A stretch of 64,000 nt of DNA, taken from positions 1,430 to 65,429 of the forward strand of contig JAJTXQ010000021.1 of the NCBI GenBank assembly GCA_021462855.1, given 5' to 3'. Position 1 is the stretch's first letter. Each line of letters begins with the position of its first letter. This DNA comes from Dehalococcoidia bacterium (GTDB lineage: Bacteria; Chloroflexota; Dehalococcoidia; DSTF01; JACRBR01). A model generated the notes under the pieces. It did no database searches, was not told where the DNA came from, and saw nothing but the letters and a program-made list of their open reading frames with translations. The position numbers and the translations under genes were made by a program. Shown here in pieces: positions 5,193-49,863 of the stretch.

Positions 5193-8100
5193 GAGCCGAC
5201 GCCATCACGCGCTTCAGCGTCTCGTCCTCCGGCAGGCCGGCCTTCGCCGCTTCCGCCATGACGTTGAGCACGCGCTTGTAGTCCTCGGGCATGACTTTGC
5301 GGAAGGACTGCACCTCGCTCTCCCACTGCGAAAGGAGCAGGTCGGCGACATCCGAGCCGGTGAGCTCGCGGTGCCGCTCGACGGTCGCGCGAAGCCATTC
5401 GCGGTCCGTGTCGTTCAGGGGCTCGAGCTCGACCATCTGGTAGTTCACGAGTTGCGGGAACCGGTTGTCCGGGTCGTACACGTAGGCGACGCCGCCCGAC
5501 ATGCCGGCCGCGAAGTTCCGTCCCGTCGGGCCAAGCACGACGACGCGCCCTCCCGTCATGTACTCGCACCCATGGTCGCCGACTCCCTCGGCGACGGCGA
5601 CGGCGCCGGAATTGCGGACGGCGAAGCGCTCGCCGACCGTGCCGCGCAGGTATGCCTCGCCGCCCGTCGCGCCGTACAGCGCAACGTTGCCGGCGATGAT
5701 GTTCTCCTCCGCCGGGAAGAGCGCATCGCGGTCCGGGTGGATCACGACGATGCCGCCCGACAGCCCCTTCGCCGTGTAGTCGTTCGCGTCGCCTTCGAGC
5801 CGCAGCGTGATGCCCCTGGGCAGGAACGCGCCGAAGCTCTGGCCGGCGGAGCCCCGCAGGTGGACCTTGATCGTGTTGTCCGGCAGGCCCGCGCCGCCCC
5901 ACCGCTTCGTCAACTCCGAGCCGAGCATCGTCCCGACGGTGCGGTTCGTGTTGCGCACGCACGTCTCGATCTCGACCGCGGTGCCGTCGCGAAGCGCCGG
6001 CGCCGCCTTCTCGATCAGGTGCACGTCGAGCGCGCGGTCAAGGCCGTGGTCCTGGCCGCGCGTGCAGTAGCGGGCCTGCCCCTCGTAGGGGTTCTGCGCC
6101 TCGGCGAGGATCGGCGTGAGGTCGAGGCCGTCCGCCTTCCAGTGGTCGATCGCCGCGCGCGTGTCGAGCACCTCGGTGTGGCCGATCGCCTCGGCGATCG
6201 AGCGGAAGCCGAGCGCCGCGAGGTACTCGCGCACCTCCTGCGCGACGAACTCGAAGAAGTTGACGACGTACTCAGGCTTGCCCGAGAAGCGCTTGCGCAG
6301 CTCCGGGTTCTGCGTTGCGACGCCGACCGGGCACGTATCGAGGTGGCACACGCGCATCATCACGCAGCCGCTGACGACGAGCGGCGCCGTCCCGAAGCCG
6401 AACTCCTCGGCCCCGAGCAGCGCGCCGATGATCACGTCGCGCCCGGTCTTGAGCTGGCCGTCGACCTGCACGACGATGCGGTCGCGCAGCCCATTGCGGA
6501 GCAGCGTCTGCTGCGTCTCCGCGAGCCCGAGCTCCCACGGCGCGCCGGCGTGCTTGATCGAGGTCAGCGGCGACGCCCCGGTGCCACCATCGTGACCGGA
6601 GATCAGCACGACGTCGCTGTGCGCTTTCGCCACGCCGGCCGCGACCGTCCCCACGCCCACCTGCGCGACGAGCTTGACATGCACCCGCGCCGCCGGGTTC
6701 GAGTTCTTCAGATCGTGGATCAGCTGCTTGATGTCCTCGATCGAATAGATGTCGTGATGCGGCGGCGGGCTGATCAGGCCGACGCCCGGCGTGCTGTAGC
6801 GTGTCCTGGCGATCCACGGGTAGACCTTGTGACCCGGCAGCTGCCCGCCCTCGCCCGGCTTCGCGCCCTGCGCCATCTTGATCTGCAGGTCGTCGGCGTT
6901 CACCAGGTACTCCGAAGTCACGCCGAAGCGGCCGGACGCCACCTGCTTCACCGCCGAGCGGCGCAGGTCGCCGTTGGGGTCGCGCTGGTAGCGGTCGGCG
7001 TCCTCGCCGCCCTCCCCGGTGTTCGACTTCGCGCCCAGACGGTTCATGGCGATGGCCAGCGTCTCGTGCACTTCCTTCGAGATGGAGCCGTAGGACATCG
7101 CGCCGGTGGCGAACCGCTTGACGATTGACGTCACCGGCTCGACCTCATCGATCGGCACCGGCGGGCGCGCGCCGTCGCGGAAGGTGAACATGCCGCGCAG
7201 GGTTGCCAGCTGCTTCGACTGGTCATCGACCAGCTGCGTGTACTCCTTGTAGATGTCGTACCGGCCGGCGCGCGTCGCGTGTTGCAGCTTGTACACCGTG
7301 TCGGGGTTGAACAGGTGGTACTCGCCCTCCCGGCGCCACTGGTACTCGCCGCCGAGCTCGAGGTCGCGGTGCGCGAGCTCCGCCGGGCGCGGCGCGTATG
7401 CCCGGCGGTGCCGGCGCGCGACTTCCTCGGCGATCTGGCCAAGCCCGACGCCGCCAATGCGCGACACCGTGCCCGTGAAGTACTCGTCGACGAGCTCCTG
7501 GTGCAGGCCGATCGCCTCGAACACCTGCGCCGCGCGGTACGACGCGACGGTCGAGATGCCCATCTTGGACATCACCTTCAGCACACCCTTGCCGGCCGCC
7601 TTCACGTAGTTCTTGATCGCGACATGCGGGTCCATGTCGCCGAGGCCATACAGCCGCTGCGTGACGAGGTCCTCGATCGATTCGAAGGCCAGGTACGGGT
7701 TGATCGCGCCGGCGCCGTAGCCGACGAGCAGCGCCATGTGGTGCACCTCGCGCGCATCGCCCGTCTCCAGCAGCAGCCCGACGTGCGTGCGCCGGCCTTC
7801 GCGGATCAGGTGATGATGCACCGCCGATACCAGCAGCAACGACGGGATCGGCGCCAGCTCCGGCCCCGACATCCGGTCCGACAGCACGATGATGCGCGCG
7901 CCCTCGTCGATTGCCTGCACCGCCTCGGCGCGCACGCGGTCGAGCGCCTCGCGCAGCGCCTCGCCGCCGCCCGCCACGCGGTAAAAGCCGGAGATCACGC
8001 GCGCGGCGAACTCCGGGTGCTCTCCGTCGTCGTTGATGTGGATGAGCTTCGCCAGCTCGTCGTTGTCGAGGATCGGGAACGGCAGCGCGACCTGGTGACA

Positions 8101-9873
8101 CGCCTCGGCTCGCGTGTCGAGCAGGTTATCCTCGGCGCCGATCGTGGCGGCGAGCGATGTCACGAGCTCCTCGCGGATCGCGTCGAGCGGCGGGGTCGTC
8201 ACCTGCGCGAACAATTCCTGGAAGTAGTCGAACAACAGCCGCGAGCGGTCGGAGAGCACGGCGATCGGTGTGTCCGTGCCCATCGACCCGATCGCCTCCG
8301 CGCCCTGCTTCGCCATCGGCGCGACGAGCAGCCGCAGCTCTTCGTGCGTGTAGCCGAACGTCATCTGGCGCCGCACGACCGACTGGTGCGACGGCACGCG
8401 GTGCTCGCGGTCGGGCAGGTCGGTGAGGTGCACCACCTGCTCCTCGCACCACCGCTCGTACGGGTGCTCAGCGGCCAGTTGCGCCTTGATCTCCTCGTCC
8501 TCGACGATCCGCCCCTGCGAGGTGTCGACGAGGAACATGCGGCCCGGCTGCAGGCGCCCCTTCTTCACCACGCGCGCCGGGTCGATGTCGACGACGCCCG
8601 ACTCGCTGGCCATGATCACGCGGTTGTCGTCGGTCACCCAGTAGCGGCTCGGGCGGAGGCCGTTGCGGTCGAGCACCGCGCCGATCACCGTCCCATCGGT
8701 GAAGGCGATCGATGCGGGGCCGTCCCACGGCTCCATGAGCGACGCGTGGTAGCGGTAGAACGCGCGCTTCGCCGGCGACATCGTCGCATGGTTCTCCCAC
8801 GCCTCCGGGATCATCATCAGCACGCCGTGCGCGAGCGAGCGGCCGGTCAGGTGCAGCAACTCCAGGCACTCGTCGAAGCTCATCGTGTCCGACGAGCCTT
8901 CCGTGATCACCGGGAACGTCTTCTCCAGGTCGGGGATCAGCGGCGTCGAGATCTGCGCCTGGCGCGCGCGCATCCAGTTGCGGTTGCCCTGCAGCGTATT
9001 GATCTCGCCGTTGTGCGCGATGTAGCGGTACGGGTGCGCGAGCGGCCACGACGGAAACGTGTTCGTAGAAAACCGGCTGTGCACCAGCGCGAGCGCCGAC
9101 TCGATCCGCGGGTCGTTGAGGTCGGGGAAGAACTGCGAGAGCTGCGGCGTCGTGAGCATGCCCTTGTACACGAGCGTGCGGCACGACAGCGAGGGGAAGT
9201 ACACCGGCAACTGCTCCGGCGCCTCGTGCTCGATGCGCTTGCGCAGCACGAACAGCCGCCGGTCGAGTTCGATGCCGGTGCGGCCGGCGGTGTCCGCCAC
9301 AAAGCAGTGCCAGAAGCCGGGCATCGCCGCGCGCGCGGTCGGCCCGATCATCGAGTCGTCGGCGGGCACGGCGCGCCAGCCGATGACGCGCAGCCCTTCC
9401 TCGCCGGCGATGCCCTCCACGATGCCGCGGGCGTCATCGGCGAGCGCGGCGTCGCGCGGCAGGAACGCCAGGCCGACGCCGTACGCGCCGGCTTCGGGAA
9501 GGGCGAACGCGGTGATCTCGCGCAGGAACGCGTCGGGCACCTGGATGAGGATGCCCGCGCCATCGCCCGTGTTCACCTCGGCGCCGGACGCGCCGCGATG
9601 GTCGAGGCTGCAGAGCGCGCCGAGCGCCGTGTCGACGATGTCGCGGCTCTTCGCGCCGGTGACGTCGACCACGAACCCGACGCCGCACGCATCGTGCTCG
9701 AAGCGGGGGTCGTAGAGCCCGCTGGCCCGCGGCACCGCGCTGAACGGCATGCCGTCGCCGCCGCGCGTCGCGGGTCGCTGGCTGGCGGGAAGGCCGCTGC
9801 CGTCGGCGTCCTGTGCGGGCCTGGTATGCGGTACGTACACGGTCATACCCACTGGGTGCTCGGAGGTGGCCAA
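5185..9873 (-). CDS. gltB: Glutamate synthase large subunit. The start is either a TTG at 9873 or an ATG at 9846.
   Basis: N-terminal amidotransferase motif ([10 protein letters not shown]) followed by FMN and GXGXG domains over about 1550 aa. Hallmark GltB sequence throughout. Confidence 0.9.
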
Positions 9874-14183: not shown

Positions 14184-14229
14184 CACGCGGCGCCGATTCG
14201 TGCCGATCGGCCCCTTGTGCCTGAAGATC

Positions 14230-14254
14230 GATAGCGGACAATACGTCCGCTATC
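14230..14254. promoter_or_regulatory. Perfect inverted repeat GATAGCGGAC-N5-GTCCGCTATC. Candidate operator of the HTH-PBP regulator/modABC operon.
   Basis: Perfect 10-bp arms with a 5-nt spacer, 17 nt upstream of a GAGGG Shine-Dalgarno and the GTG start of the regulator. Confidence 0.5.
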
Positions 14255-14271
14255 AGATTGAGGGCGACCTG

Positions 14272-15399
14272 GTGGGCCGTCGCACGACTGCGCCGAAACT
14301 CGAAAACCACGTCAAGGAGGCGCGGCTCAACGCGGGCCTCTCGCAACAGGAGCTCGCCGACCGGACGGGCCTGACCCGCCAGGCCGTGAACTCGATCGAG
14401 GCGGGACGCTACCTGCCGAATACCGCGGTTTCACTCCAGCTCGCCCGCGCCCTCGACACGACGGTGGAACGCCTCTTCACGCTCGACGCGCCCACCGGCG
14501 TGACGCCGTCCGTCGCGTTGCCGGACGGCGTGCGACACGGCGACCGCGTCGTCGTGGGGCGCGTCGGCGCGCGGCTCGTCGCCCACCCCGTCGCCGCGCC
14601 GGCCACGTCGGACGGCTTCGCGAGCGCCGATGGCGTCGTCGTCGATGATGCCAACATCCGCCTGCTCGTGCCCGCCGCGCAGGTGGAAAAGACCGCGTTC
14701 CTCGTGGGGTGCGATCCGAGCCTCGAGATGCTGGCGACGCTCGTTACGCGGCGGGCGCGCGGAAGCGCCCGTCTCCTGTGGGTGCCCGGGTCGAGCAAAG
14801 ACGCCATCGATGCGCTCGCGAACGCGTCCGCGCACATCGGCGGAATCCACCTGCGCGAAGAGGCGAGCGGCGAGTTCAACGTCCCGCAGGCGACGCGGGC
14901 GCTCGAGCGGTCAGGCGGCATGCTGATCGCCTACGCGGACTGGGAACAGGGGTTCGTGCTGCGCAGCGGCAATCCCCGCAAGCTCAGCGGCGCGGACAGC
15001 CTCGCCGGGCGCGGCGTCCGCATCGTGAACCGCGAGCCGGGCGCCGGGAGCCGTCTGCTGCTGGACAGCATGCTGAGCGCCGCCTGCATCGACCCTGCGC
15101 GCATCGCCGGCTACGACCACGTCGTGCGCAGCCACATGGCGGTAGCGCGCGCCGTGGCCGGCGGGACCGCCGACACGGGCATCGCCATCCGCGCCGTCGC
15201 GTCGGCGCTCGAGCTCGACTTCCTGCCGCTCATGCATGCCAGGTTCGACCTGGTCATCCCGGCGACACATCTCGACCATCCGGCGATCGACCTGCTGCTC
15301 GAGGTCTTGCAGGCTGCCGCGCTGCGCGCCGAGCTCGGCGCTCTGCCCGGGTACGGCACGGCGGAGACGGGCGCGGTGCGCGCCACGGTTGCGGTATGA
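14272..15399 (+). CDS. XRE-family HTH fused to a PBP-like (ModA/TOBE-related, COG1910-type) domain. Putative molybdate/tungstate-responsive regulator.
   Basis: GTG start with GAGGG 6 nt upstream. HTH (LSQQELADRTGLTRQAVNSIEAGRYLPN) followed by a roughly 300-aa periplasmic-binding-protein-like domain. modA follows immediately. Confidence 0.65.
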   Translation: MGRRTTAPKLENHVKEARLNAGLSQQELADRTGLTRQAVNSIEAGRYLPNTAVSLQLARALDTTVERLFTLDAPTGVTPSVALPDGVRHGDRVVVGRVGARLVAHPVAAPATSDGFASADGVVVDDANIRLLVPAAQVEKTAFLVGCDPSLEMLATLVTRRARGSARLLWVPGSSKDAIDALANASAHIGGIHLREEASGEFNVPQATRALERSGGMLIAYADWEQGFVLRSGNPRKLSGADSLAGRGVRIVNREPGAGSRLLLDSMLSAACIDPARIAGYDHVVRSHMAVARAVAGGTADTGIAIRAVASALELDFLPLMHARFDLVIPATHLDHPAIDLLLEVLQAAALRAELGALPGYGTAETGAVRATVAV

Positions 15400-15432
15400 G
15401 ACGTCAATCATGTCACTGACAAGGAGCACGCA

Positions 15433-16305
15433 ATGAATCTATCGGTACGGTCGCTTCGCAACGCCGCGGCCGGCTTGCTCCTGGTGGCGGCCATGGCGCT
15501 GGCCGCGGCGTGCCGCGGCGACGGCGACTCGCCGTCGCCCACGTCGACGACCGCCGCCCCGACCGCCGCATCAGCCGCGGCCCGGCTCGACGGCGAGCTG
15601 ACGGTGTTCGCGGCCGCGTCGCTCACGGCGGCGTTCAAGGACGTTGGCGCGGCGTTCGAGGACGCGAACTCCGGCGTGGACGTGACATTCAACTTCGCCG
15701 GCAGCCCCGCGCTGCGCACGCAGGTGGAGGAAGGCGCGCCGGCCGATGTCCTGGCGCTGGCCGACAACAAGAACATGCAGGCGGCGCTCGACAAGAAACT
15801 CGTCGCCCAAGCCTGGCGCACGTTCGCGCGCAACCGGCTCGTGATCGCCGTCCCGTCGGCGAACCCCGGCGAGATTTCCGCGCCGGTCGACCTCGCCAAC
15901 GGCGGACTGAAGCTGGTGCTGGCGCAGGAGGACGTGCCGGTGGGCAACTACGCCCGCGAGTCGCTCGGCAACATGGAAGCCGATGCCACGTTCGGCGCCG
16001 GCTTCCGCGACCGCGTGCTGGCCAACGTCGTGTCGAACGAGCCAAACGTCAAGGCGGTCGTGACGAAGGTCCAGCTCGGCGAGGCCGACGCCGGCATCGT
16101 CTACGCCACGGACATCACCGGAGACCTCAAGGGCACGGTGACGGCGATCCCGATTCCGGATGAGTTCAACGTGGTCGCGACGTATCCTGTTTCCGTCGTG
16201 TCGGACGCGAAGGAGCCGGAAATCGCCGCCGCCTTCATCGACTTCCTGTTGTCTGCCGCGGGTCAGGCCATCCTTGAAGAGCATGGATTCACCGGAGCGG
16301 AGTAA
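15433..16305 (+). CDS. modA: Molybdate ABC transporter substrate-binding lipoprotein
   Basis: AAGGAG RBS and a lipoprotein signal (LAAACRG). ModA-family motifs (FAAASLT, NFAGS, GEADAGIVY). Confidence 0.85.
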   Translation: MNLSVRSLRNAAAGLLLVAAMALAAACRGDGDSPSPTSTTAAPTAASAAARLDGELTVFAAASLTAAFKDVGAAFEDANSGVDVTFNFAGSPALRTQVEEGAPADVLALADNKNMQAALDKKLVAQAWRTFARNRLVIAVPSANPGEISAPVDLANGGLKLVLAQEDVPVGNYARESLGNMEADATFGAGFRDRVLANVVSNEPNVKAVVTKVQLGEADAGIVYATDITGDLKGTVTAIPIPDEFNVVATYPVSVVSDAKEPEIAAAFIDFLLSAAGQAILEEHGFTGAE

Positions 16306-17145
16306 ATGAGCGCCGGCGCGGTGTCCCGGCGAGGACGCGCGCGCGTGGTCGGGCTGGGCTGGGCGCTCGGCCCGCCCGCGCTGCTCGGCGTACTGTTCCT
16401 CGGCCTGCCGATCGCCGCGCTCGCATGGCGCGCCGGGCGCACCGGCGCCCTCGCCGAACACGCAACGTCGGCGTTCGTGCTCGACGCGCTCCGCCTGAGC
16501 GCGATCACCAGCACGTTCACGCTGCTGATCGCGGTGATCGTCGGGACGCCGCTCGCGTACCTGCTCGCGCGCTACCGCTTTCCCGGCAAGTGGCTCATCG
16601 ACGTGCTCATCGACCTGCCGATCGTGCTCCCGCCGACGGTTGCCGGCGTCGCGCTGCTCGTGACGCTCGGGCGCCGCGGGATCGTCGGTGAGCAGCTCGA
16701 CGCCGCCGGCATCGATATCGCCTTTACGACGACGGCGGTGGTGCTGGCGCAGACGTTCGTCGCGGCGCCCTTCTATATCCGCACCGCGAAGGCCGGCTTC
16801 GAGAGCGTGGACCCGTCACACGAGCGGCTCGCATGGACGCTGGGCGCATCACCGCTGCGCGCGTTCCGCGAGGTGACGCTGCCGCTCGCGTGGCCTTCGT
16901 TGCTCGCCGGCGGCATCCTCTGCTGGGCGCGCGCGCTGAGCGAGCTCGGCGCAACGCTGATCTTCGCTGGCAGCTTCCAGGGTCGCACCCAGACGATGCC
17001 GCTGGCGATCGTCGGCGCGTTCGAGTCCGGCAAGTCGGTCGAAGTGCCGATCGCGCTGTCCGTGATCCTCGTGTGCGCCGCGGCGGCGATGCTGGTGTTG
17101 CTGCGGCTGGTGACGGGCGGCGTCTCCCGGGACGCGCATGTTTAG
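16306..17145 (+). CDS. modB: Molybdate ABC transporter permease
   Basis: Starts 1 nt after the modA stop. Six TM segments. CysTW/ModB EAA-like loop (ARALSELGATLIFAG). Confidence 0.85.
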   Translation: MSAGAVSRRGRARVVGLGWALGPPALLGVLFLGLPIAALAWRAGRTGALAEHATSAFVLDALRLSAITSTFTLLIAVIVGTPLAYLLARYRFPGKWLIDVLIDLPIVLPPTVAGVALLVTLGRRGIVGEQLDAAGIDIAFTTTAVVLAQTFVAAPFYIRTAKAGFESVDPSHERLAWTLGASPLRAFREVTLPLAWPSLLAGGILCWARALSELGATLIFAGSFQGRTQTMPLAIVGAFESGKSVEVPIALSVILVCAAAAMLVLLRLVTGGVSRDAHV

Positions 17146-18238
17146 CGTTGACTTCACGCTTCGCCTTGGCGACTTCACACTCGCGCCCACTTTCAGCGGC
17201 GGCGACGAGCTGATCGTCCTGTGCGGGCCCTCCGGCTCGGGCAAGTCGCTGACGCTGCAGTCGGTCGCGGGCATCATGCGCCCCGATGAGGGCCGGATCG
17301 AAGTCGCCGGGCGCGCGCTCCTCGATCGCGCCGCCGGCATCGATGTGCCGGTGCAGGCGCGTCGCGTCGGATACGTGCCGCAGGGACAGACGATGTTCCC
17401 GCACATGACCGCGGCGCAGAACGTGGCGTTCGCCGTGCGCCCGGAGGACCGCGACCGCCGCCGCGCCATCGTCGCCGACCTGCTCGAGAAGACCGGGCTC
17501 ACGGGACTCGAGGACCGGCGGCCGCGGCAGCTGTCCGGCGGTCAGCAGCAACGTGTCGCGCTCGCCCGCGCGCTGGCGGCCGACCCGCGCATCCTGCTGC
17601 TCGACGAGCCGTTCAGCGCGCTCGACACGGCGCTCCACGGCGAACTGCGCGAGCTCATCGTGTCGGTGCAGGGCGCACGCGGCATCCCCGTGCTGATCGT
17701 CACGCACGACCTGGGCGATGCGTTCAGCCTCGGCGACCGGCTGATCGTCTTCGAGGCCGGGCGCGTGCTGCAGCAGGGCTCGCGCGAGGACATCTTCTTC
17801 CGCCCGGCGACGCGGCGCGTGGCGGAGCTCGTCGGCGCGCGCAACATCCTGCCGATGACGGTGCGCGGCATCGGCGACGGCGTCGTCGCGCTCGACTGGG
17901 CCGGCCGCGAGATCGCCGCCGCCATCTACGCCACGCACGACGCGCCGCCCGTCGCGACAGGCCAGCACGTCGAAGCTTCGATCCGGCCGACGCAGATCAT
18001 GATCCGAAGGCAGGGCGACACCTACGAAGGCCGCCGCAACGTCTTCCTCGCCACGATCGCCAGCGAGATCATGGGCGCCGAGTTCTATCGCCTGTTCGTG
18101 CGCATCGATGGCTCGCCCGCCGCGCACGACCTGGAGATCGAGCTGCCGGCCTACACGTACTTCCGGCTGGGGCTCGACCGGCACAAGGAGATCGAGCTCT
18201 CGATCCGGCCCGAGGCCGTGCACATCATGCACGGCTGA
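17138..18238 (+). CDS. modC: Molybdate ABC transporter ATP-binding protein with C-terminal TOBE domain
   Basis: Walker A (GPSGSGKS), signature (LSGGQQQRVALARA), Walker B (LLLDEPFSALD). C-terminal molybdate-binding TOBE-like region. Confidence 0.85.
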   Translation: MFSVDFTLRLGDFTLAPTFSGGDELIVLCGPSGSGKSLTLQSVAGIMRPDEGRIEVAGRALLDRAAGIDVPVQARRVGYVPQGQTMFPHMTAAQNVAFAVRPEDRDRRRAIVADLLEKTGLTGLEDRRPRQLSGGQQQRVALARALAADPRILLLDEPFSALDTALHGELRELIVSVQGARGIPVLIVTHDLGDAFSLGDRLIVFEAGRVLQQGSREDIFFRPATRRVAELVGARNILPMTVRGIGDGVVALDWAGREIAAAIYATHDAPPVATGQHVEASIRPTQIMIRRQGDTYEGRRNVFLATIASEIMGAEFYRLFVRIDGSPAAHDLEIELPAYTYFRLGLDRHKEIELSIRPEAVHIMHG

Positions 18239-18240: not shown

Positions 18241-19653
18241 TCAGCGCGGGTCGATCGGCGCGACCGGCGGCAAGCGCTCCTCGATCGCGCGCGCCGCGGC
18301 GAGGCACGTGTCCTCCCGGTAGCGCCGGCCGATGATCTGCACGCCCTGCGGCAGGCCGCCGGCGAGCCCGGCCGGCATGGCGACGGACGGCAGCCCGAGC
18401 AGGTTCACCGTAACGGTCAGCCGCAGCAACTTCATCCCCGCGCCGAACTCGGCGCGCCCGGCGATGTCGAAGCCGGCGGGAAACGGCTGTTGCGTGCCGA
18501 CCGGCCCGAGCGCCAGCGGATAGCGCTCGGCGAACACGCTCCAGGCGCGCGCGATGCTGTTGCGCGTCTCCCACGCCTGCACGTAACCGGCAAGGTCGAG
18601 CGCGGGCACTGTCTCGAACGCAAGCTGCAGGAACGCCTTCGCGCCATCCGACGCGAGCGGTTCGAGCAGCGGGTAGGTCACCGCCCGCAGCTCGGTCACC
18701 ACCAGCGTCGAGTAGAGGTCGCGGGCCTCGGCGACCATCGGAAAGTCGACCTCCTCGACGGCGTAGCCCGCGTCGGCGAGCGCGCCGGCGGCCCGCCGCA
18801 CGCCGGCCGCCACGTCCGGGTCGACGCCTTCGCCCGCCGGATCGGCGCACACCGCGACACGCACGGGCGCATCGAGCGGCGGGCCTTCGAGCTGCGCCGG
18901 CGTCCACCACGGGTCACGCGCGTCGGCCGCGGTCATGATCGCGAACGCCGTTGCCAGGTCGTCCGCACGCCGCGCCATCGGGCCATGCACGGAAAAGAGC
19001 TGCGCCGTCATCGTGCCGTCCTCGGGCGGGATCGCGGCGAACCGCGGGACGCGTCCGAGCGTCGGCCGCAGCGACATGACGCCGCACGCCTGCGCCGGCC
19101 AGCGCAGCGAGCCGCCGTAGTCGTTGCCCATGCCGAGCGCGGACATGCCGCAGGCGAGCGCGGCGGCATCGCCGCCCGATGATCCTCCGGGCGTGCGCGC
19201 GGCGTCCCACGGGTTGAGCGTGGCGCCGCGCAGCGCGTTATCGGTGTGGAAACGCAGGCCCACGTCAGGCATGTTCGTACGGCCGATGACGATAGCGCCG
19301 GCACCCTTGAGCTTCGCGATGTGCGGCGCGTCGGTCGCCGGCACGGCGTCCTTCAGCACGACGAGCCCGTTCGTCGTCGCACTCCCGGCGACGTCGATGT
19401 TCTCCTTGACCGTCATCGGCACGCCCAGCAGCGGGCCGGCGTCGCCGCCCGCGGCGAGCGCGCGGTCCGCCGCGTCGGCCGCCGCGATGGCGTCGTCTGC
19501 CAGCGTGACCGTCACCGCGTTGACGCGCGGGTTCACCTCCGCGATCCGCGCAAGGTGCGCCTCGACCACCTCGCGCGCCGAGATCGCCCTCGCGCGAACC
19601 GCCGCGGCGAGCTGCCCCGCGCCCATGCGCCACGGCGCTCCGTCGTATGCCAT
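18241..19653 (-). CDS. Amidase (amidase-signature family, GatA-like)
   Basis: AAGGAG RBS 8 nt upstream of the ATG (MAYDGAPW). AS-family GGSSGG motif plus the catalytic Ser-cisSer-Lys context. The longer upstream ORF extension is spurious. Confidence 0.8.
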   Translation of the reverse strand: MAYDGAPWRMGAGQLAAAVRARAISAREVVEAHLARIAEVNPRVNAVTVTLADDAIAAADAADRALAAGGDAGPLLGVPMTVKENIDVAGSATTNGLVVLKDAVPATDAPHIAKLKGAGAIVIGRTNMPDVGLRFHTDNALRGATLNPWDAARTPGGSSGGDAAALACGMSALGMGNDYGGSLRWPAQACGVMSLRPTLGRVPRFAAIPPEDGTMTAQLFSVHGPMARRADDLATAFAIMTAADARDPWWTPAQLEGPPLDAPVRVAVCADPAGEGVDPDVAAGVRRAAGALADAGYAVEEVDFPMVAEARDLYSTLVVTELRAVTYPLLEPLASDGAKAFLQLAFETVPALDLAGYVQAWETRNSIARAWSVFAERYPLALGPVGTQQPFPAGFDIAGRAEFGAGMKLLRLTVTVNLLGLPSVAMPAGLAGGLPQGVQIIGRRYREDTCLAAARAIEERLPPVAPIDPR

Positions 19654-19658
19654 TGTCC

Positions 19659-20837
19659 CTACTCCTTCATGTGCGCGGCGCGATAGCGCGCGAACCGCGC
19701 ATCCACTTCCGCGTCCGTGAGCCCGAAGTCCGCCAGCTCGTACCGGTGCGCCGGGCGGCGCTCGCCCGACGCGCTCTCCTCGTGCATCGTGATCATCGCA
19801 GCGCGTGCATCGGGCGCAAGCCCGGCGCCGGCGCGCTCGTAGATCCGCGCGACCGTCGCCAGGGGGTCGGCGACAAAGTCCTCGTACCGCACATCGATGA
19901 ACTGCCCGGCATCGAACCGCGCGCGGTCTTCCATGAACAGGTCGGCGCCTCGCGCCCACAGCTCGAGCTGCCAGCGGCCGGCGGCGGCGCCCGTGAACAT
20001 CGCCGATTGCCCGGCGGTGGCCCGCGTCGTCAGGCTGCTGACCGAGGCGATGACGCTCCGCGGCTCGCGGTGCGTCTGCACGATGATGGCGTCCGGGTAG
20101 GCGGCCAGCAGCGCGGGTAGCGCGAACATGTGGCTCGGGTTCTTCAGCACCCAGCGGCGCCCGCCGTCGTGCAGCCCGATCACCTGGAGATTTCGCCGGT
20201 GCCGCCGGTACGCCTGCGTCCAGTCCTGCGCCGCGAGCCAGCGCGAGTACGCCGGGATGTGCGCCAGGCTCTCGAAGGACACCGACATCATCGATTGCTG
20301 CAGCAGCTGCCAGCACTCCTCGACCATGTCGGCCGACATGTAGTGCAACCCCATGAACTCGGGGTCCTCGACGTGGTGCCGCTCGTACCCCGCCTGGATG
20401 CGCCCGAAGATCGCGTTCTGCTCCCACGTCTCGCGCGGCGGCCGCGGCTGCGGCGCGACCGTCAGCCACATCTCGAGGCCCTGGTGCCGCGGGTCGGCGC
20501 ACAGAAGCCGGTGCAGCGCCGTCGTCCCCGTGCGCGGCAGCCCCGTCACGAAGATCGGCCGCTCGATCGCCACGCCCGCGTGCTCGGGGTGCGCGCGCCA
20601 TGCCGCCTCGCTCAGCTGCCGCGCGACGAGCGCGCCGCGCAGCATGCCGAACGTCACGCGGTTGCCGTGCGGCGTCAGCCCCGCCTCGTCGCGATACGAC
20701 GCGAGCAACACGGCAAGCGGCTCGCGGTATTCGCTGCCGCCGAAGCCGTCGAGGCCGGTGATCTTCCGCGCCGCCGCCTCCAGCTCCTCGACCGTGCCGG
20801 CGTCATCGCGTCCCGCCTTCGCCGGTTGGCCGGTCAC
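19659..20837 (-). CDS. Sulfotransferase family protein (Sulfotransfer_3-like, PAPS-dependent)
   Basis: GTG start overlapping the upstream stop (GTGA). 5'-PSB motif (GLPRTGTT) and 3'-PB-like region (RHRRNLQV...WVLKNPSH). Confidence 0.7.
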   Translation of the reverse strand: MTGQPAKAGRDDAGTVEELEAAARKITGLDGFGGSEYREPLAVLLASYRDEAGLTPHGNRVTFGMLRGALVARQLSEAAWRAHPEHAGVAIERPIFVTGLPRTGTTALHRLLCADPRHQGLEMWLTVAPQPRPPRETWEQNAIFGRIQAGYERHHVEDPEFMGLHYMSADMVEECWQLLQQSMMSVSFESLAHIPAYSRWLAAQDWTQAYRRHRRNLQVIGLHDGGRRWVLKNPSHMFALPALLAAYPDAIIVQTHREPRSVIASVSSLTTRATAGQSAMFTGAAAGRWQLELWARGADLFMEDRARFDAGQFIDVRYEDFVADPLATVARIYERAGAGLAPDARAAMITMHEESASGERRPAHRYELADFGLTDAEVDARFARYRAAHMKE

Positions 20838-22033
20838 CCGAGCATCCTCGCCGCAACCGCGGCCTGGCGTTCGGCGATGCGCTGTGCCCACTGCCCGGGC
20901 GTGACGCGGGCGGCATCGTGGTGCGGGAGCCTGGCCGGCAGTGCATCGAACGGCACGACTTCCGCTGTCGGGCCGTCGGCGGCGGTCAGCGCGCGCGACA
21001 GCCGCTGCCATCGCAGTTGCACGAAGCCGCGCTGATGCCCCGTGCACTCGAGCCAGTTCGCGATGCCGGGGTCGCGCTCGCTGATCACGAACCGCACCTT
21101 TCCATCACCGTCGATGCGCGCCTGCGCGCCGGTGAGGCTCGTCTGGTGGTTGATGAAGTCGGTCGAGATGTACCACATGCTCCCGAGCTGGATGCCCTGG
21201 TACGGCGCCCCGGACGCCGGCACCGTGACGATCATCGCCTCATCGTCGCGCAGGTCGTAGTGTCCGACGGACGAGTACTGCGTCGCGAGGCCGCCGGGCG
21301 TCAGGCGCGGCTCCGTCAGCGTGTTCACCGGCAGGTCAAGGTAGAACCACTTCGGGAACTGGAGGAAGGTCTTGATCTGGCTTACGAGGATCTTGCCGGC
21401 CACCGCGTATCGCCGCGCCGTCGATTCGGCGGTGGCGCGCGGCGGCGCCGCGCCCGCGCGGTCCGCGCGACGGATGCGGAGCATGCCGGGCAGCTCGTTC
21501 GCCCAGTCGCTGTACACCTCGCGCACCAGCAGCATCGCGGCGCCGGGTCCGAGCGCGAACTCGTTGCGCGCGGCGTCGCGCTTGCCGGGGCCGAAGCGCA
21601 GCTCGAATGCGCCGTCGCCGCCAACGGCGAAGTCGCGGTCGTCGAACGCGGTCAGGCTGTCCGGCGCCTGCGACGGCGTGTAGTCGCCATTCATCACCTG
21701 GAAGCTCAGGTCCGCGGTCGTGCCGCGGCGCCCCGTGACGATGTACTCCGCGTCGTCGCGGATGCGCGCGCTGAAATACAGCGTGTCCGGGTTGTCGAGC
21801 CCGACCTTCGTGTACGGCGTCGCCGAGCGGATGAAGTACGGGAAGTCGCGGTCGTGCGACCACGCCGCCTGCAGCGCCGCGCGGATGCACCCGGCGAGAT
21901 ACTCGTAGCCCTCCAGCAGATCCTGCTCGGACTGGATGTGCGGCGCTGCCGCGATGATCCGCTCAGCTTCGCCGATCGCCTCGGCGAGCGGGCCCGGGTA
22001 GCCGCGCGCGTCGAAGGCCGTGGATTCGCTCAA
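20834..22033 (-). CDS. DUF1214 (and probably DUF1254)-domain protein of unknown function. Start uncertain: TTG at 22033 or GTG about 30 nt upstream.
   Basis: A roughly 400-aa conserved-looking C-terminal part (…NGDYTP…FTGAQARIDGDGKVRFVISERDPGIANWL…). The N-terminal ORF extension is an Arg/Gly-rich artefact. TTGA overlap with the SDR stop. Confidence 0.5.
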   Translation of the reverse strand: MSESTAFDARGYPGPLAEAIGEAERIIAAAPHIQSEQDLLEGYEYLAGCIRAALQAAWSHDRDFPYFIRSATPYTKVGLDNPDTLYFSARIRDDAEYIVTGRRGTTADLSFQVMNGDYTPSQAPDSLTAFDDRDFAVGGDGAFELRFGPGKRDAARNEFALGPGAAMLLVREVYSDWANELPGMLRIRRADRAGAAPPRATAESTARRYAVAGKILVSQIKTFLQFPKWFYLDLPVNTLTEPRLTPGGLATQYSSVGHYDLRDDEAMIVTVPASGAPYQGIQLGSMWYISTDFINHQTSLTGAQARIDGDGKVRFVISERDPGIANWLECTGHQRGFVQLRWQRLSRALTAADGPTAEVVPFDALPARLPHHDAARVTPGQWAQRIAERQAAVAARMLG

Positions 22034-22818
22034 TGGTGGAACTCCCCCGCATTCACGTCGAGGCACTGGCCCGTGATCGCGTGCGCCATGTCCGATAGCA
22101 GGAAGACGGCCGCATCGGCGACCTCCTCGGGCAGCGGCAGGCGGCGCAGGTCGGTGGCCGCCGCCGTCTCGGCGTAGATGTCGTCGTGCGTCACGCCGCG
22201 CTCTTTCGCCAGGTGGTCGAAATACCACTTCACCGCGCCGGCGTAGATCCACCCCGGCGCGACGCTGTTGACGCGGATCCCGCGCGGCCCCAGCTCCGAA
22301 GCCAGGCTCTGCGCCATCGCCAGCAGGCTCGCCTTGCCCATCTTGTACGGCCCGTATTCCTTCCGGCTGTGGCGGAGCGCCGCCGAGTTGATCATCACGA
22401 CGGCGCCGCCGGCGCGTTCGAGCTCCGGCGCGCACAGCCGCGTCATCCGCAGCGCCGCGAGCACGTTCGTCTCGAACGCCGCGCGGATGTCGGCCGCGTC
22501 GACCTGCGTGAGCGGCGTCATCGGCGGCATGGCGAAGGCGTTGTTCACGAGCCCGTCGATGCGGCCGAACTGCGCCACCGCCCGCTCGACGAGCGTCTCG
22601 CATGCCGCGTCGTCCGTCAGGTCGGCCGGCGCGACGAGCGCGCGGCGCCCGCCTTCGCGGACGCGCTCGGCGACGTTCTCGAGCCGCCGCTCCGTGCGCG
22701 CCGACAGCACGATGTCAGCGCCGGCTGCGGCTGCGCGCGTGGCGATCGCCGCGCCCAGCCCCGGCCCGACGCCCGCGACCAGGATCACCTTCCCGTCAAG
22801 CAGCAGCGCCGCTGTCAT
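22030..22818 (-). CDS. SDR family oxidoreductase
   Basis: ATG (MTAALLLDGKVILVAGVGPGLGAAIA) with a TGxxxGxG-type NAD(P) motif and a catalytic YxxxK (YGPYKMGK). ATGA overlap with the upstream LLM gene. Confidence 0.85.
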   Translation of the reverse strand: MTAALLLDGKVILVAGVGPGLGAAIATRAAAAGADIVLSARTERRLENVAERVREGGRRALVAPADLTDDAACETLVERAVAQFGRIDGLVNNAFAMPPMTPLTQVDAADIRAAFETNVLAALRMTRLCAPELERAGGAVVMINSAALRHSRKEYGPYKMGKASLLAMAQSLASELGPRGIRVNSVAPGWIYAGAVKWYFDHLAKERGVTHDDIYAETAAATDLRRLPLPEEVADAAVFLLSDMAHAITGQCLDVNAGEFHH

Positions 22819-23687
22819 CGCGCCTTCGCCATCACGCGCTCGGCGTATCGCTCGAGGTTCGCGATCTTCGCGGCGAGCGGCTCGGCGTCTTGGCCGGCGA
22901 TGTACGGATTGCGGAAGCCGACGATCGCGTCGGTCACGCCGCGCTCCTCGAGCCGGCGGATGCCGTCCGGCGTGTACGCCTCGGCGGAGATGACGTGGAT
23001 TTCGAACGGGCGCGCGGCCGTGCCGGCGCCCTCGCGCAGCTGCGCGAGCCGCGTGAGGAGCGCGCCGAGGTCGTCCGTGCCGCCGGCGTGCATCCAGCCG
23101 TCGCCGCGTGTGGCGGCGCGCCGCAACGCCGCTTCGCTGTGCCCGCCGACGAGGATCGGGATCGGTTGCGACGGAACCGGCGCGATCTTGACCGCAGGCA
23201 CGTCGTACGCTTCGCCGTGGTGCTCGAAGTAGCCGCCGCGCGTCAGTCCCCGGACGATGTCGATGGCCTCGTCCATGCGCGCCCCGCGCCGCTCCCACGG
23301 CACGCCCATGGCGGCGAAGTCCTCCGGCCAGGGGCTGATGCCGACGCCGAGCGCCAGGCGGTTTCCCGTAAGCACGGCGATCGACGCCGCCTGCTTCGCG
23401 ACGAGCACGGGCGGCCGCACCGGCAGTTTCAGCACGAACGGCGTGAAACGTATGCGCGTCGTCACGGCGCCCATCGCCGCGATCAGCGTGAACGCCTCGA
23501 TGAACGGCTTGTCGTCGAGGAACTCGCGTGTGCCGTCAGCGGTGTACGGGTACGCCGTCGACGATTCGCGCGGATAGCACAGGCTGTCGCCGACGGCGAA
23601 CGAGTCGAAGCCCGCCGCTTCGGCCGCCCGCGCGAGCGGCAGGTAGAACGCCGGATCCGTCATCGCCTCCGCGTAGGTGAACCGCAT
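22815..23687 (-). CDS. LLM-class (luciferase-like) F420-dependent oxidoreductase family protein
   Basis: About 290 aa with a luciferase-like TIM-barrel signature (MRFTYAE...GFDSFAVGDSL...VGISPWPEDF). First gene of the minus-strand operon. Confidence 0.7.
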   Translation of the reverse strand: MRFTYAEAMTDPAFYLPLARAAEAAGFDSFAVGDSLCYPRESSTAYPYTADGTREFLDDKPFIEAFTLIAAMGAVTTRIRFTPFVLKLPVRPPVLVAKQAASIAVLTGNRLALGVGISPWPEDFAAMGVPWERRGARMDEAIDIVRGLTRGGYFEHHGEAYDVPAVKIAPVPSQPIPILVGGHSEAALRRAATRGDGWMHAGGTDDLGALLTRLAQLREGAGTAARPFEIHVISAEAYTPDGIRRLEERGVTDAIVGFRNPYIAGQDAEPLAAKIANLERYAERVMAKAR

Positions 23688-23809
23688 GCCGCCTCGCTGT
23701 TGCCTTGTGTCCGGAATGGCACGATAGTAGGCGTTGCGGCCGTCCGGCGAAAGAGCGGAACCTCCGTGCGATGTCCGGCGTCATCCCACATGTGAAAGGA
23801 GCGAAGCGC

Positions 23810-24280
23810 ATGGCTCGCGTGCTCATCCTCCTCCCTGTGGCCGCCTTCGCGCTGGCGGCGCTCGCGGCCGCCTGCGGCGGCGACGGTCCCTCGATCCCGC
23901 CCGATCGCACGCCGGATTCGCCCGGCGGGGCGTCGAGCCGGCTCGAAGGCACGGCGTGGCGCCTCGAGCGCATCGGCGCGCGGGGCGCGCTGACAAACGC
24001 GCCGCCGTGGCTCCGGTTCGAAGACGGCGGCAAGCTCGGCGGGACCACCGGCTGCAACTCGCTCGGCGGCGAGTGGAAGACCAGCGGCGACAAGCTGATG
24101 CTCAGCGGCATCGTCAGCACGCTGATCGGCTGCGAGGGAGCCGTCGCCGAGCAGGAAGCGTCGTTCCTGGCGGTGCTGCGCGCCGTCGAACGGTACCGCG
24201 TCCAGGGCACGACGCTCGTGCTGCTCGACGCGGACGGCGTCGTGAAGGCGACGTTCATGGACGAGGAGTCCGCGCCCTGA
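23810..24280 (+). CDS. META domain (HslJ-like, DUF306) lipoprotein
   Basis: GAAAGGAG RBS and a lipoprotein signal (LAALAAACGG). META/HslJ motifs (LEGTAWRLE, GGTTGCNSLGGEW). Confidence 0.6.
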   Translation: MARVLILLPVAAFALAALAAACGGDGPSIPPDRTPDSPGGASSRLEGTAWRLERIGARGALTNAPPWLRFEDGGKLGGTTGCNSLGGEWKTSGDKLMLSGIVSTLIGCEGAVAEQEASFLAVLRAVERYRVQGTTLVLLDADGVVKATFMDEESAP

Positions 24281-26574: not shown

Positions 26575-28329
26575 CTAGAACAGGCCCTGCTTTTGCGCCT
26601 TCGAGAGCAGCTTGAACAGCTCGTAGAAGTTGGCGACGCCGGAGTCGCCGAGCTTCTGCAGCAACGCGCCGCGACGGTCGACTTCCTTGTAGATCTGCCG
26701 CCGCTTCTTCTCGGACAGGCCGCGCGCCGGCGCGATGCGCTGCTCCAGGATGTAGCTGTTGTTCAGCCCGACGAACTCGAACACGTCGTTCACCGGGTCC
26801 CAGCGGAAGATCTCGACGAACGAAAAGGAGTTCGTCGAGGGATCGTAGCCGATGATCTCCGAGATGCTGAGGATGCGGCGGCCGGGCTTGCCGTTCGGCA
26901 GCCGCACCGCGCTCGCAATGACGACGACGTTCAGGTTGTCCACGTACGTCTTCGGCACGTTGATCGGCGCGCCGGTGACACGCTGGATCAGCTTCTCGAC
27001 CGTCGCGGCGTGGAACGTCGCGCACACGGCGTGGCCGGTCATCATCGCCTGGAACGCGATGTTGCCCTCCTCGCCACGGATCTCACCGATGATGATCATG
27101 TTCGGGCGCTGGCGCAGCGCGGCCTTCAGCAGGCTGAACATGTCGACGCCGCCGCCCTGCGCCGACTGGCCGCGGATCACCTCGCGGGTCCAGTTCGGGT
27201 GCGGCACCTGCACTTCCGGCGTGTCCTCGATGCTCACGATCTTCGCCCACGGCGGGATGAACGTCATCAGCGCGTTCATCAGCGTCGTCTTGCCCGAGGC
27301 CGTCTCGCCTGACACGAAGAAGTTGAGCCCCTCCTCGACGACCAGCGACAGGTAGCCGGCCATCTGCCACGTCAGCGCGCCCGAGTTGCAGATGTCGACG
27401 ATGCTGAGCGGGACGCCCATGAACTTGCGGATGGTGAAGTTGGAGCCGTTCTTCGACACATCGCCGCCGTAGACGATGTTGATACGCGAGCCGTCGGGCA
27501 GCGTGGCGTCGACGATCGGGTTGCGGAAGGTCACCGGCTTCTTGATCTTCTCGGCGAGCTTCAGGACGAAGTCGTCGAGCTCCTCGTGCTGGTCGAAGGT
27601 GATGCTGCTCTTCAACCCCTTGAAGATCTTGTGCTCGATGTACACCGGGCCGAGCCCGCTGCACGAGATGTCCTCGATCCAGTTATCGGAGATCAGCGGC
27701 TCGAGCGGGCCCATGCCCACCTTGTCGCGGATGACGGCGTACTTCAGCGCCTCGAGCTCGGACTGCGTGAGCTTGATCTTGCCGCCCCTGGCGCCGGACT
27801 TGCTGCCGCCGAACGGCAGCTTCAGGAAGCCCGCCTCACCGTCCTTTACGTTCGGCTTCGGCGCAGCCGGCGCGTCGACGACGTCGCAGCTGTCGTCGAT
27901 GGCCTGGAGCAGCCCCAGCGTCTTCTCCTCCGGCGTCGTCGCCTCGGCGAGGATCTCGACGAAGTCCAGCAGGAGGAACTCCATCTGCTCCAGCAAGTCG
28001 CCCATCGCGTCGGACCCGGGCTCGATGGCGATGTAGAAGTTCCGCGCCTCGGCGTTGTCCGGGAAGATGTGGATGAACGTGTTGTTGCCGACCGGGTAGA
28101 TCAGGTTCGGGTCCTTGAGGTCGCCCAGCTTGCGGTTGGCCTCCGGGTAATAGTCCGGCACGCCGTACTCCTGCATCGGCACCTTGTGCAGGTACGTCAT
28201 CAGGTGCGGCGCCGCCTCGGCCTGCTCCCGCAGCTCGGGCGAGAGGATGTTGTGCAGCGGGCACTGCGCGGCGCCACGCGAGTGGTCGTCGATCTCGGCA
28301 GGCGCATCGAACGGCAGGCGCTGCGGCAT
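26575..28329 (-). CDS. Archaeal-type secretion ATPase, ArlI/FlaI-like (type II/IV secretion NTPase superfamily)
   Basis: Walker A (VSGETASGKTT) and the TadA/FlaI N-terminal motif (ATLPDGSRINIV...FTIRKF). Archaeal-type signature (LLKAALRQRPNMIIIGEIRGEEG) and a FlaI-like C-terminal extension (…FRWDPVNDVFEFVG…). Confidence 0.75.
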   Translation of the reverse strand: MPQRLPFDAPAEIDDHSRGAAQCPLHNILSPELREQAEAAPHLMTYLHKVPMQEYGVPDYYPEANRKLGDLKDPNLIYPVGNNTFIHIFPDNAEARNFYIAIEPGSDAMGDLLEQMEFLLLDFVEILAEATTPEEKTLGLLQAIDDSCDVVDAPAAPKPNVKDGEAGFLKLPFGGSKSGARGGKIKLTQSELEALKYAVIRDKVGMGPLEPLISDNWIEDISCSGLGPVYIEHKIFKGLKSSITFDQHEELDDFVLKLAEKIKKPVTFRNPIVDATLPDGSRINIVYGGDVSKNGSNFTIRKFMGVPLSIVDICNSGALTWQMAGYLSLVVEEGLNFFVSGETASGKTTLMNALMTFIPPWAKIVSIEDTPEVQVPHPNWTREVIRGQSAQGGGVDMFSLLKAALRQRPNMIIIGEIRGEEGNIAFQAMMTGHAVCATFHAATVEKLIQRVTGAPINVPKTYVDNLNVVVIASAVRLPNGKPGRRILSISEIIGYDPSTNSFSFVEIFRWDPVNDVFEFVGLNNSYILEQRIAPARGLSEKKRRQIYKEVDRRGALLQKLGDSGVANFYELFKLLSKAQKQGLF

Positions 28330-28335
28330 CGGCGG

Positions 28336-29049
28336 TCAGGCCTTTGCGCTCGACACGGGGATGATGCGCATGCCGAGTCCCGGCTCGACATCGAAGTTCA
28401 CGATGTTGCCGGTCGTCTTTTCCGCGCCGCGGACCTTCGCCACTTCCAGCACCTTCATCAGCACGTCGCGCACTTCCTCGGTGCGGAGGCGCAGGTGCGC
28501 GTCGCACAGCGAGCGGATGCGCATGAACATCGCTTCCTCGAACGCGTGCGAGTGCATGGTGAAGAAGACGGTCATGTTGTTGTCCACGTACTCCTTCACC
28601 GACGTGAGGAACGACAGCGTCTGTGACTCGGGCACCTGCGACACGAACGACGTCAGCGAGTCGAGGAACACGCAGTCGAAGCGCCCCTCCAGCGTGCCGA
28701 TGTGGTCGAGCAGCTTGTGGAACGCCGTGTCGGCCGCCTCCGGCGTCATCGCGGCGGGCACCGGGTACACGTTGAACGTGCCGAGCAGGAAGAAGTCCGT
28801 CACGTCGAGGCTCAGGCTCGCCATCTGGCGGAACAGGCTGCGAGACGTGTTCTCGGTCGTGTAGAGCACGCAGCGGAACCCGCCGTTCAGCGCGCCGTGG
28901 ATGAGCTGTTGCGTGATCACGCTCTTGCCCGCGTTCGACGAGCCTTCGATGAGGATCAGCGACCCCTCGGGGATGCCGCCGCCCATCTTCTTGTCGATCT
29001 CCGTGCTGCCGGTCGACACGACGCGTCGCTCGGCGAGATCAATGCTCAT
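28336..29049 (-). CDS. KaiC/RecA-fold ATPase, ArlH/FlaH-like
   Basis: ATG with GGAGG 8 nt upstream (MSIDLAERRVVSTGSTEIDKKMGGGIPEGSLILIEGSSNAGKS). FlaH-like downstream block (YTTENTSRSLFRQMASLSLDV…YPV). 237 aa. The longer ORF N-terminus is an artefact. Confidence 0.65.
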   Translation of the reverse strand: MSIDLAERRVVSTGSTEIDKKMGGGIPEGSLILIEGSSNAGKSVITQQLIHGALNGGFRCVLYTTENTSRSLFRQMASLSLDVTDFFLLGTFNVYPVPAAMTPEAADTAFHKLLDHIGTLEGRFDCVFLDSLTSFVSQVPESQTLSFLTSVKEYVDNNMTVFFTMHSHAFEEAMFMRIRSLCDAHLRLRTEEVRDVLMKVLEVAKVRGAEKTTGNIVNFDVEPGLGMRIIPVSSAKA

Positions 29050-29279
29050 GGTCGCGGCCTCCAGCCCGATCGCGCGCATACGACAGCGCGCCGCCCGGCG
29101 CAGGGGCGCGGGCTCACTGACATTGTCGGCGCGGCGCCCGGCAAAAGGCAGGTGCGCGCACCCGCGAGATGCGCCCGCCGAATCGAACATCGGGGCGCCG
29201 CCACGCGGGCGTGCGGGGCCCGCGCGGCGCGTGCCGGGCGGTTCCCCTACGGGAGGCGCTTCCGTAGACTCATCGCCAT

Positions 29280-42862: not shown

Positions 42863-43291
42863 TTAGCGGCGGATGCTGCTGACGCGGCGGCGGCGGTTCT
42901 CGGCGATGCGCAGGCGGATGAGCGCGCGCTGCAGCGCCGCGGCGGCCAGCGCCAGGTCCTCGGTGCCCTCGCGCCGCTCGAGCGCGACGCGCGCGCGCTC
43001 CCGCGCCGCTTCCGCCCGGGCGACGTCGATCTCGTCGGCCCGCTCGGCGGCGTCAGCAAGCACGATCACACGGTCGTTCAGCACCTCGAAGTAGCCGCCG
43101 GTGATGGCGAACGGGAGCTCCTCGGCGCCCTTCTTGAGGATCAGTTCGCCGGGCTCCAGCAGCGTCATGAACGCCGCGTGCCTGGGCAACACGGCGAACT
43201 GGCCCTCGGCGCCGGGCGCGATCACCTCGTCGATGCCACTCTCGGTAAGCATCGTCTTCTCGATGGTCACGATCTCGACGGTCAGCGGCAT
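42863..43291 (-). CDS. atpC: F0F1 ATP synthase subunit epsilon
   Basis: Typical epsilon beta-sandwich plus helical hairpin; last gene of the atp operon. Confidence 0.85.
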   Translation of the reverse strand: MPLTVEIVTIEKTMLTESGIDEVIAPGAEGQFAVLPRHAAFMTLLEPGELILKKGAEELPFAITGGYFEVLNDRVIVLADAAERADEIDVARAEAARERARVALERREGTEDLALAAAALQRALIRLRIAENRRRRVSSIRR

Positions 43292-43311
43292 GTGCGCGCC
43301 TCGATCCTCGC

Positions 43312-45584
<2,273 letters not shown>

Positions 45585-45608
45585 GCCTTACTCGCTTCTC
45601 GCCGCCGC

Positions 45609-47156
<1,548 letters not shown>

Positions 47157-49859: not shown

Positions 49860-49863
49860 CCCG

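Follow-up and report, generated by a model that had tools for sequence, protein, structure and literature searches.

Mycobacterium tuberculosis has four sulfotransferases, of which Stf3 is associated with sulfomenaquinone and Stf1 is the product of Rv3529c. Sulfotransferases bind 3'-phosphoadenosine 5'-phosphosulfate (PAPS) with an xRxGTT loop and an Arg...Ser pair. Here we describe an operon in a 64,000-nucleotide stretch of a Dehalococcoidia bacterium (Chloroflexota; GenBank assembly GCA_021462855.1, contig JAJTXQ010000021.1, positions 1,430 to 65,429), referred to as a whole as the window, whose three central genes are orthologues of the stf1 operon of M. tuberculosis, Rv3531c-Rv3530c-Rv3529c. 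In M. tuberculosis these are consecutive genes with 4-nt and 1-nt overlaps, and Rv3531c has no Pfam match; a contig of the M. tuberculosis complex gives the order PPE gene, 375-aa Rv3531c, 260-aa short-chain dehydrogenase/reductase (SDR), 384-aa sulfotransferase (ST), and then Rv3527 and kshA. The mycobacterial cholesterol catabolic cluster, as given in PMC6429209, includes the trio, and gel-shift assays showed that the regulator KstR binds the Rv3531c/Rv3532 intergenic region (Kendall 2007, PMC1995591).

A paper of July 2026 still calls the substrate of Stf1 (M. tuberculosis H37Rv) unknown (PMC13449962), and our survey of the literature on DUF1214, Rv3531c and Rv3529c found no enzymatic characterisation. 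The Rv3529c protein is credited with an immunomodulatory effect in one cited paper. The sulfotransferase ErSULT of E. ramulus acts on hydroxy fatty acids, and of all PDB entries Stf1 is the one that its predicted structure resembles most (PMC13449962). Stf3 and ErSULT belong to the same enzyme superfamily as the window ST and can be likened to it at the superfamily level only; they differ in that no DUF1214-like or SDR partner has been reported for either. An earlier note on this DNA, made from the letters alone, knew of no characterised pathway with such a gene set, and the 2026 paper bears this out. What it missed is that the trio matches the stf1 operon and is no orphan.

The operon consists of five consecutive minus-strand genes, given here in their order of transcription.

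22815-23687, minus strand: LLM, an F420-type luciferase-like oxidoreductase, 290 aa, ATG start; first gene of the operon
22030-22818, minus strand: SDR, a classical SDR oxidoreductase, 262 aa, ATG start; orthologue of Rv3530c
20834-22033, minus strand: X, a remote DUF1214-superfamily protein, 399 aa, TTG start; orthologue of Rv3531c
19659-20837, minus strand: ST, a PAPS-type sulfotransferase, 392 aa, GTG start; orthologue of Stf1 (Rv3529c)
18241-19653, minus strand: amidase, an amidase-signature hydrolase, 470 aa, ATG start; last gene of the operon

With moderate confidence, we read these genes as one operon built around an ancient three-gene cassette (SDR, X and ST) for PAPS-dependent sulfation of a small molecule, in which LLM and the amidase would be lineage-specific accessory enzymes. 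The resemblance to the stf1 operon covers all three families over their full length. Identity is 55% between X and Rv3531c (E 6e-163), 51% between SDR and Rv3530c, and 57% between ST and STF1 in PDB 2ZQ5 (E 8.6e-144), where the alignment pairs residues 8-383 of ST with residues 5-382 of the chain. In both organisms the three genes share a strand, the stop codon of one gene overlaps the start codon of the next, and the PAPS residues are kept. The order differs, being SDR-X-ST in the window and X-SDR-ST in M. tuberculosis, and the window adds LLM upstream and the amidase downstream.

Relatives of X were sought in one genome per species, and at least 596 genome stretches encode one. The locus statistics refer to the best 80 of these stretches, each with 10-kb flanks, and recurrent neighbours were obtained by clustering all flanking open reading frames. 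About 76 of the 80 loci have X, SDR and ST side by side and in the same orientation, with median identities of 68.5%, 63% and 65%, respectively. The gene order is X-SDR-ST in most Actinomycetota, SDR-X-ST in the window, X-ST-SDR in Burkholderia and Sinimarinibacterium, and X-ST in a few loci; only X-ST is present in a relative with an X of 81% identity. Because the order varies between lineages yet the linkage persists, this is strong evidence that the trio is a functional unit. The trio is co-inherited and translationally coupled in Actinomycetota, in a Chloroflexota metagenome-assembled genome (MAG) and in Beta- and Gammaproteobacteria. The closest genome match to X in the one-genome-per-species scan is a Chloroflexota MAG (77% identity).

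Further genes recur beside the trio. A SnoaL_4 gene of the NTF2 fold lies directly upstream of X in 51 of 74 loci by gene call and in 61 of 80 by tblastn, and an IclR-type regulator is found at 28 loci. Amycolatopsis, Prauserella, Nocardia, Kibdelosporangium and other actinomycetes (cysNC-cysD / SnoaL_4-X-SDR-ST) resemble the window in having X, SDR and ST, 57-70% identical, in one operon. These actinomycete loci have their own PAPS-synthesis genes, SnoaL_4 and often an IclR-type regulator, none of which occurs within the 64 kb of the window, whereas the window carries LLM, the amidase and an LEH-fold protein instead.

ST matches Sulfotransfer_3 (PF13469) with 196.7 bits against a threshold of 27. 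It has the 5'-phosphosulfate-binding (PSB) loop in the xRxGTT form (R102-T-G104-T105-T106), the 3'-phosphate-binding (PB) pair R257-x7-S265 and the motif K232-N-P-S-H236. In an alignment of 75 family members, Stf1 included, the PSB loop, KNPSH and R257/S265 are kept in at least 97%. Judged from its residues, ST is thus an intact PAPS-type enzyme, as the earlier note had supposed. Predicted PAPS-dependent sulfotransfer is supported because these motifs are intact and PAPS-synthesis genes adjoin the cassette in relatives: divergent cysD plus bifunctional cysN/cysC genes are found at 38 of the 69 loci that have at least 5 kb of upstream sequence.

X is the most conserved member of the core and is conserved over its entire length. 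In a library clustered at 50% identity, its family counts 617 representatives at E≤1e-30. The Pfam search gave no match to X even at E≤1 except DUF1254 at E=0.11, so that the PF06742 (DUF1214) model itself does not match at E≤1, and NCBIfam gave none; a precomputed PF06742 match exists for about 8 of its 120 closest homologues. A profile of X and its relatives finds PDB 6ANS, a Burkholderia protein, at E 2e-40. The AlphaFold2 model of X, with a predicted local distance difference test (pLDDT) score of 78.6, matches the same structure with a Foldseek E of 1e-29 and TM of 0.76-0.82, and matches the DUF1254/DUF1214 structural-genomics proteins 3U07 and 2P3Y more weakly. The 6ANS-type protein of Burkholderia passes PF06742 (38.3 bits against a threshold of 25). 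Because such homologous proteins pass PF06742, the DUF1214 label is valid for X at the superfamily level. Of the family names in the earlier note, those of LLM, SDR, ST and the amidase agree with the family models, and DUF1214 is right at the superfamily level only.

The sole internal loops of low confidence in the X model, which is confident elsewhere, hold the two motifs that vary least in the family, TKxGLDNPD and SxDxxNHQTS, at residues 71-80 and 289-298 (DNA about 21794-21823 and about 21140-21169). Lid or active-site loops would be expected to look like this, and the two loops may form a mobile lid or active site.

SDR matches PRK07890 with 379 bits (cutoff 258) and PF13561 with 182 bits. 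It has the sequence features of a classical SDR, namely GxGxxLG as G16-V-G-P-G-L-G, N92-N-A, S145 and Y158-K-M-G-K162. Its closest solved structure is 3UCX (E 1.5e-78), followed by the 7-alpha-hydroxysteroid dehydrogenase 1AHH (E 5e-36); the likeness to the latter is a generic one.

The cassette also exists in a more distant form. In Burkholderia, Pseudomonas and Sinimarinibacterium, a 6ANS-type DUF1214 gene is followed with a 4-nt overlap by a Sulfotransfer_3 gene, as X is followed by ST in the window, and the next gene encodes an SDR in Burkholderia and Sinimarinibacterium and a 320-aa protein in Pseudomonas. In Burkholderia the cassette adjoins cysNC; in Sinimarinibacterium it has SnoaL_4 and Steroid_dh genes close by and is flanked by a TonB-dependent receptor. 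These cassettes differ from that of the window in the low identity of their proteins and in that their X passes PF06742 whereas the window X fails. Identities of about 30%, 33% and 38% for X, ST and SDR are similar to one another, and thus the trio has diverged in parallel between phyla. The Burkholderia and Pseudomonas cassettes have an extra gene for a protein of 320-328 aa, without homologue in the window. The Pseudomonas protein (locus L089, 8284-9246) shows a weak DHH/DHHA1 match (E 4.6e-5) that is just below the Pfam threshold, and its 328-aa homologue in Burkholderia (locus L088, 9150-10136), encoded after the SDR, has no Pfam match. Such a DHH-like protein could be a phosphatase for 3'-phosphoadenosine 5'-phosphate (pAp), removing the by-product of the sulfotransferase.

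LLM and the amidase are distributed differently from the trio. LLM matches PF00296 with 152 bits and TIGR03619 (F420_Rv2161c) with 187.4 bits against a cutoff of 166.9, which assigns it to the TIGR03619 family and predicts an F420-dependent enzyme. Its identification as the orthologue of Rv3520c, a member of the M. tuberculosis cholesterol cluster, was rejected (28% identity). Of the 80 loci, 12 have a homologue of LLM no more than 10 kb from the core; 11 of these homologues are 64-67% identical and one, a weaker match, 44%. The homologue is usually encoded in a divergent operon, along with a SnoaL_2 protein and a 282-aa protein that lacks a Pfam match. In the uncultured Actinomycetota MAGs L027, L049, L053, L054, L058, L062 and L078, this 282-aa/LLM/SnoaL_2 operon stands divergently beside SnoaL_4-X-SDR-ST. 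LLM is an accessory member outside the conserved core. A functional link to the trio is probable because two different arrangements bring them together: in the window LLM shares the operon of the trio, and in several MAGs it belongs to a divergent one.

The amidase matches PF01425 with 300 bits and PRK07487 with 522 (cutoff 428), and carries the signature residues, a GGSSGG motif at residue 156 and K83 within KEN. Its nearest solved structures, 8XAC and 5H6S, are uninformative as to substrate. It is present in three genomes whose X is 86-87% identical to that of the window (L083, L084 and L087), and may either add a step peculiar to this lineage or be a passenger that has nothing to do with the trio. 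The neighbourhood comparison that the earlier note had called for thus upholds three of its genes, a fourth (LLM) in part, and the fifth (amidase) not at all; the five do not form one co-conserved set. Within L083, L084 and L087, the full arrangement LEH - META - LLM-SDR-X-ST-amidase is kept while the outer flanks differ. It includes the following features upstream of LLM.

23688-23770, minus strand: upstream leader/promoter region of 83 nt, shared with the divergent META lipoprotein gene
23771-24280, plus strand: META-domain lipoprotein (PF03724, E 4.9e-24); same position in L083, L084 and L087
24288-24662, minus strand: LEH/SnoaL_2 NTF2-fold protein (PF07858 LEH, E 1.1e-25); same position in L083, L084 and L087

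The leader is almost invariant among the window, L083 and L087. It holds a TACTAT box some 40 nt 5' of the ATG, gave no match to Rfam families or tRNAs, and may function as a leader element or operator. The META protein has a lipoprotein-like signal peptide with Cys, as read off the sequence. A comparison of the LEH protein with the SnoaL_2 protein of the MAG loci that carry LLM gave only 29% identity (E 1e-6). Upstream of the LEH gene lies a gene for an acyl-CoA dehydrogenase in the window and for an enoyl-CoA hydratase in L083. SnoaL_4, the 282-aa protein of the MAGs, the DHH-like protein, Rv3527 and Rv3528c have no homologues in the window.

The coupling of the five genes described in the earlier note was found exactly as stated. 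LLM and SDR overlap by ATGA, SDR and X by TTGA, and X and ST by GTGA, and a 5-nt gap separates ST from the amidase, with AAGGAG immediately 5' of the ST stop codon TAG. Each internal start is preceded, within the gene upstream, by a purine-rich Shine-Dalgarno-like sequence, such as GGGGGAG before the TTG of X. The G+C content at third codon positions (GC3) is 0.92-0.94 in each of the five genes, and a consensus scan found no sigma-70-like promoter or intrinsic terminator inside the block. However, 4-nt overlaps occur at 10 of the 42 same-strand neighbouring pairs across the window, and thus the coupling is real yet not exceptional for this DNA. Further runs of 4-nt and 1-nt overlaps are seen on the minus strand at 52292-55501 and 56510-58949, including two major facilitator superfamily (MFS) transporters, several small open reading frames and an aminotransferase.

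Other features of the window are as follows.

14200-18238, plus strand: molybdate-type ABC transporter (modA, modB-like permease, ATPase), preceded by a regulator with HTH_3 and PBP_like domains
3744-9750, minus strand: glutamate synthase large and small subunits (housekeeping)
38475-40064, plus strand: recJ (housekeeping)
42863-50103, minus strand: F1Fo ATP synthase operon (housekeeping)

Because housekeeping genes surround it, the operon is part of the core chromosome and not of a mobile element. The G+C content of the window is about 70% and even throughout, the window has no tRNA or Rfam matches, and the inverted repeats in the flanks of the operon are only G+C-rich, chance-like palindromes. 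The final stop of the transporter (18238) and that of the amidase (18241) are convergent and 2 nt apart, which leaves no space for a terminator between the two operons. The transporter was considered as a sulfate importer and rejected, being ModABC-like (modA TIGR01256, modB-type permease) and not kept beside the L083 operon. Elsewhere in the window, the minus strand at 26575-29079 encodes a secretion ATPase of the T2SSE family (584 aa) and, immediately after it, a KaiC-like ATPase (247 aa), possibly as part of a pilus or secretion system. Two well-supported plus-strand coding regions with high GC3 encode proteins without a Pfam match, one of 547 aa at 20-1663 (E≤1e-5) and one of 268 aa at 41968-42774 (E≤1e-6).

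How the sulfation cassette might work can be outlined as follows. ST would O-sulfate a hydroxyl group of a lipophilic small molecule with PAPS as the donor, and the acceptor might be a hydroxy-acyl chain or else an alcohol of the alicyclic or steroid/terpenoid-like kind. SDR would set the alcohol/ketone state at or near the sulfated position. X would act as an obligatory cytoplasmic partner that binds and presents the substrate, or that converts the intermediate enzymatically before or after its sulfation. The LLM reductase, the amidase and possibly the LEH-fold protein would supply accessory tailoring or substrate-preparation steps in this lineage. We infer a lipophilic substrate from KstR at the Rv3531c promoter, the frequent NTF2-fold neighbours, the likeness of SDR to 7-alpha-hydroxysteroid dehydrogenase and the substrate of ErSULT. 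Our further proposal, that the cassette co-evolves across phyla with X as a new obligatory partner of ST, and that a sulfated lipophilic metabolite is made or processed, is a tentative one that we regard as possible rather than probable. The earlier note had suggested a pathway for a sulfated molecule; the linkage of ST to SDR and X across three phyla speaks for it, with a unit of three genes rather than five.

Several observations weigh against the sulfation cassette as we read it. The functions of all of its members are predicted from sequence, the role given to X is one that we infer, and the fold of X resembles only uncharacterised structural-genomics proteins. The steroid/terpenoid link would draw on regulation in M. 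tuberculosis and on generic SDR and NTF2 similarities. A tblastn search with CysD and CysNC representatives (E≤1e-5) found no cysD, cysN or cysC homologue in the 64-kb window. In contrast to M. tuberculosis, no kshA or other steroid genes lie near the window operon, and a KstR operator (TAGAACnnGTTCTA-like; motif from Kendall 2007, PMC1995591) is absent from the 64-kb window at up to two mismatches, so that cholesterol regulation of the M. tuberculosis kind cannot be transferred. Finally, the amidase is found in none of the 80 genome loci and is restricted to one narrow clade.

The main rival explanation is catabolic activation, in which no stable sulfated product would be made and the sulfate would serve as a leaving group for elimination or substitution by X or an NTF2-fold neighbour during the breakdown of a steroid/terpenoid-like compound; other steps of that breakdown would fall to LLM, the amidase, the LEH protein and the acyl-CoA dehydrogenase nearby. 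The M. tuberculosis operon, a neighbour of kshA, is part of the cholesterol catabolic cluster and has KstR bound at its promoter region, SnoaL_4 and LEH-fold genes recur as neighbours, and the host genera include well-known degraders of hydrocarbons and terpenoids. The Steroid_dh gene and TonB-dependent receptor at the Sinimarinibacterium cassette point the same way, as do the acyl-CoA dehydrogenase (window) and enoyl-CoA hydratase (L083) upstream of the LEH gene. However, most actinomycete loci have no steroid-catabolism genes within 10 kb, PAPS is costly for catabolism, and the Pfam search found no lyase-like or sulfatase-like signature in X; the dedicated cysD-cysNC genes fit both explanations. 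We consider catabolic activation unlikely.

The same comparison of loci bears on whether the operon is a mosaic, in which the amidase, and perhaps LLM, would be unrelated genes that were joined to the trio in this lineage and share a transcript with it but not a pathway. The amidase is missing from 80 of 80 loci and LLM from 68, the family matches of the amidase are generic, and the frequency of 4-nt overlaps in this genome means that coupling alone says little. Such a mosaic would have to be squared with the retention of the five-gene order, together with LEH and META, in three related genomes with differing outer flanks, and with the tie of LLM to the trio in two architectures, and we judge it to be rather improbable. 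That X itself is the acceptor, with ST sulfating its Tyr, Ser or Thr residues, would account for the nearly constant adjacency and translational coupling of X and ST, and many invariant Tyr, Ser and Thr residues do lie in the flexible loops of X. It would leave the co-conserved SDR without an obvious role; moreover, ErSULT, the characterised enzyme structurally nearest to Stf1, acts on small molecules, and X is conserved over its full length in the manner of an enzyme or binding protein. Sulfation of X by ST thus seems very improbable to us.

The M. tuberculosis stf1 operon, the crystal structure of Stf1 and the KstR regulon were already known; what is new here is the recognition of the trio as a widely conserved unit, since we found no description in the literature of a DUF1214-like protein, a Stf1-type ST and an SDR as one. 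In soil actinomycetes, a Chloroflexota MAG and Proteobacteria, a DUF1214-like protein and an SDR accompany Stf1-type enzymes almost without exception, so that the three should be studied together and not Stf1 alone. LLM and the amidase may indicate the class of the substrate, if they are functionally linked to the trio. Many non-pathogenic, genetically tractable hosts carry the cassette. If the sulfation cassette is as we propose, solving it in such a non-pathogen would reveal the substrate of M. tuberculosis Stf1, and would provide a first function for the DUF1214 superfamily.

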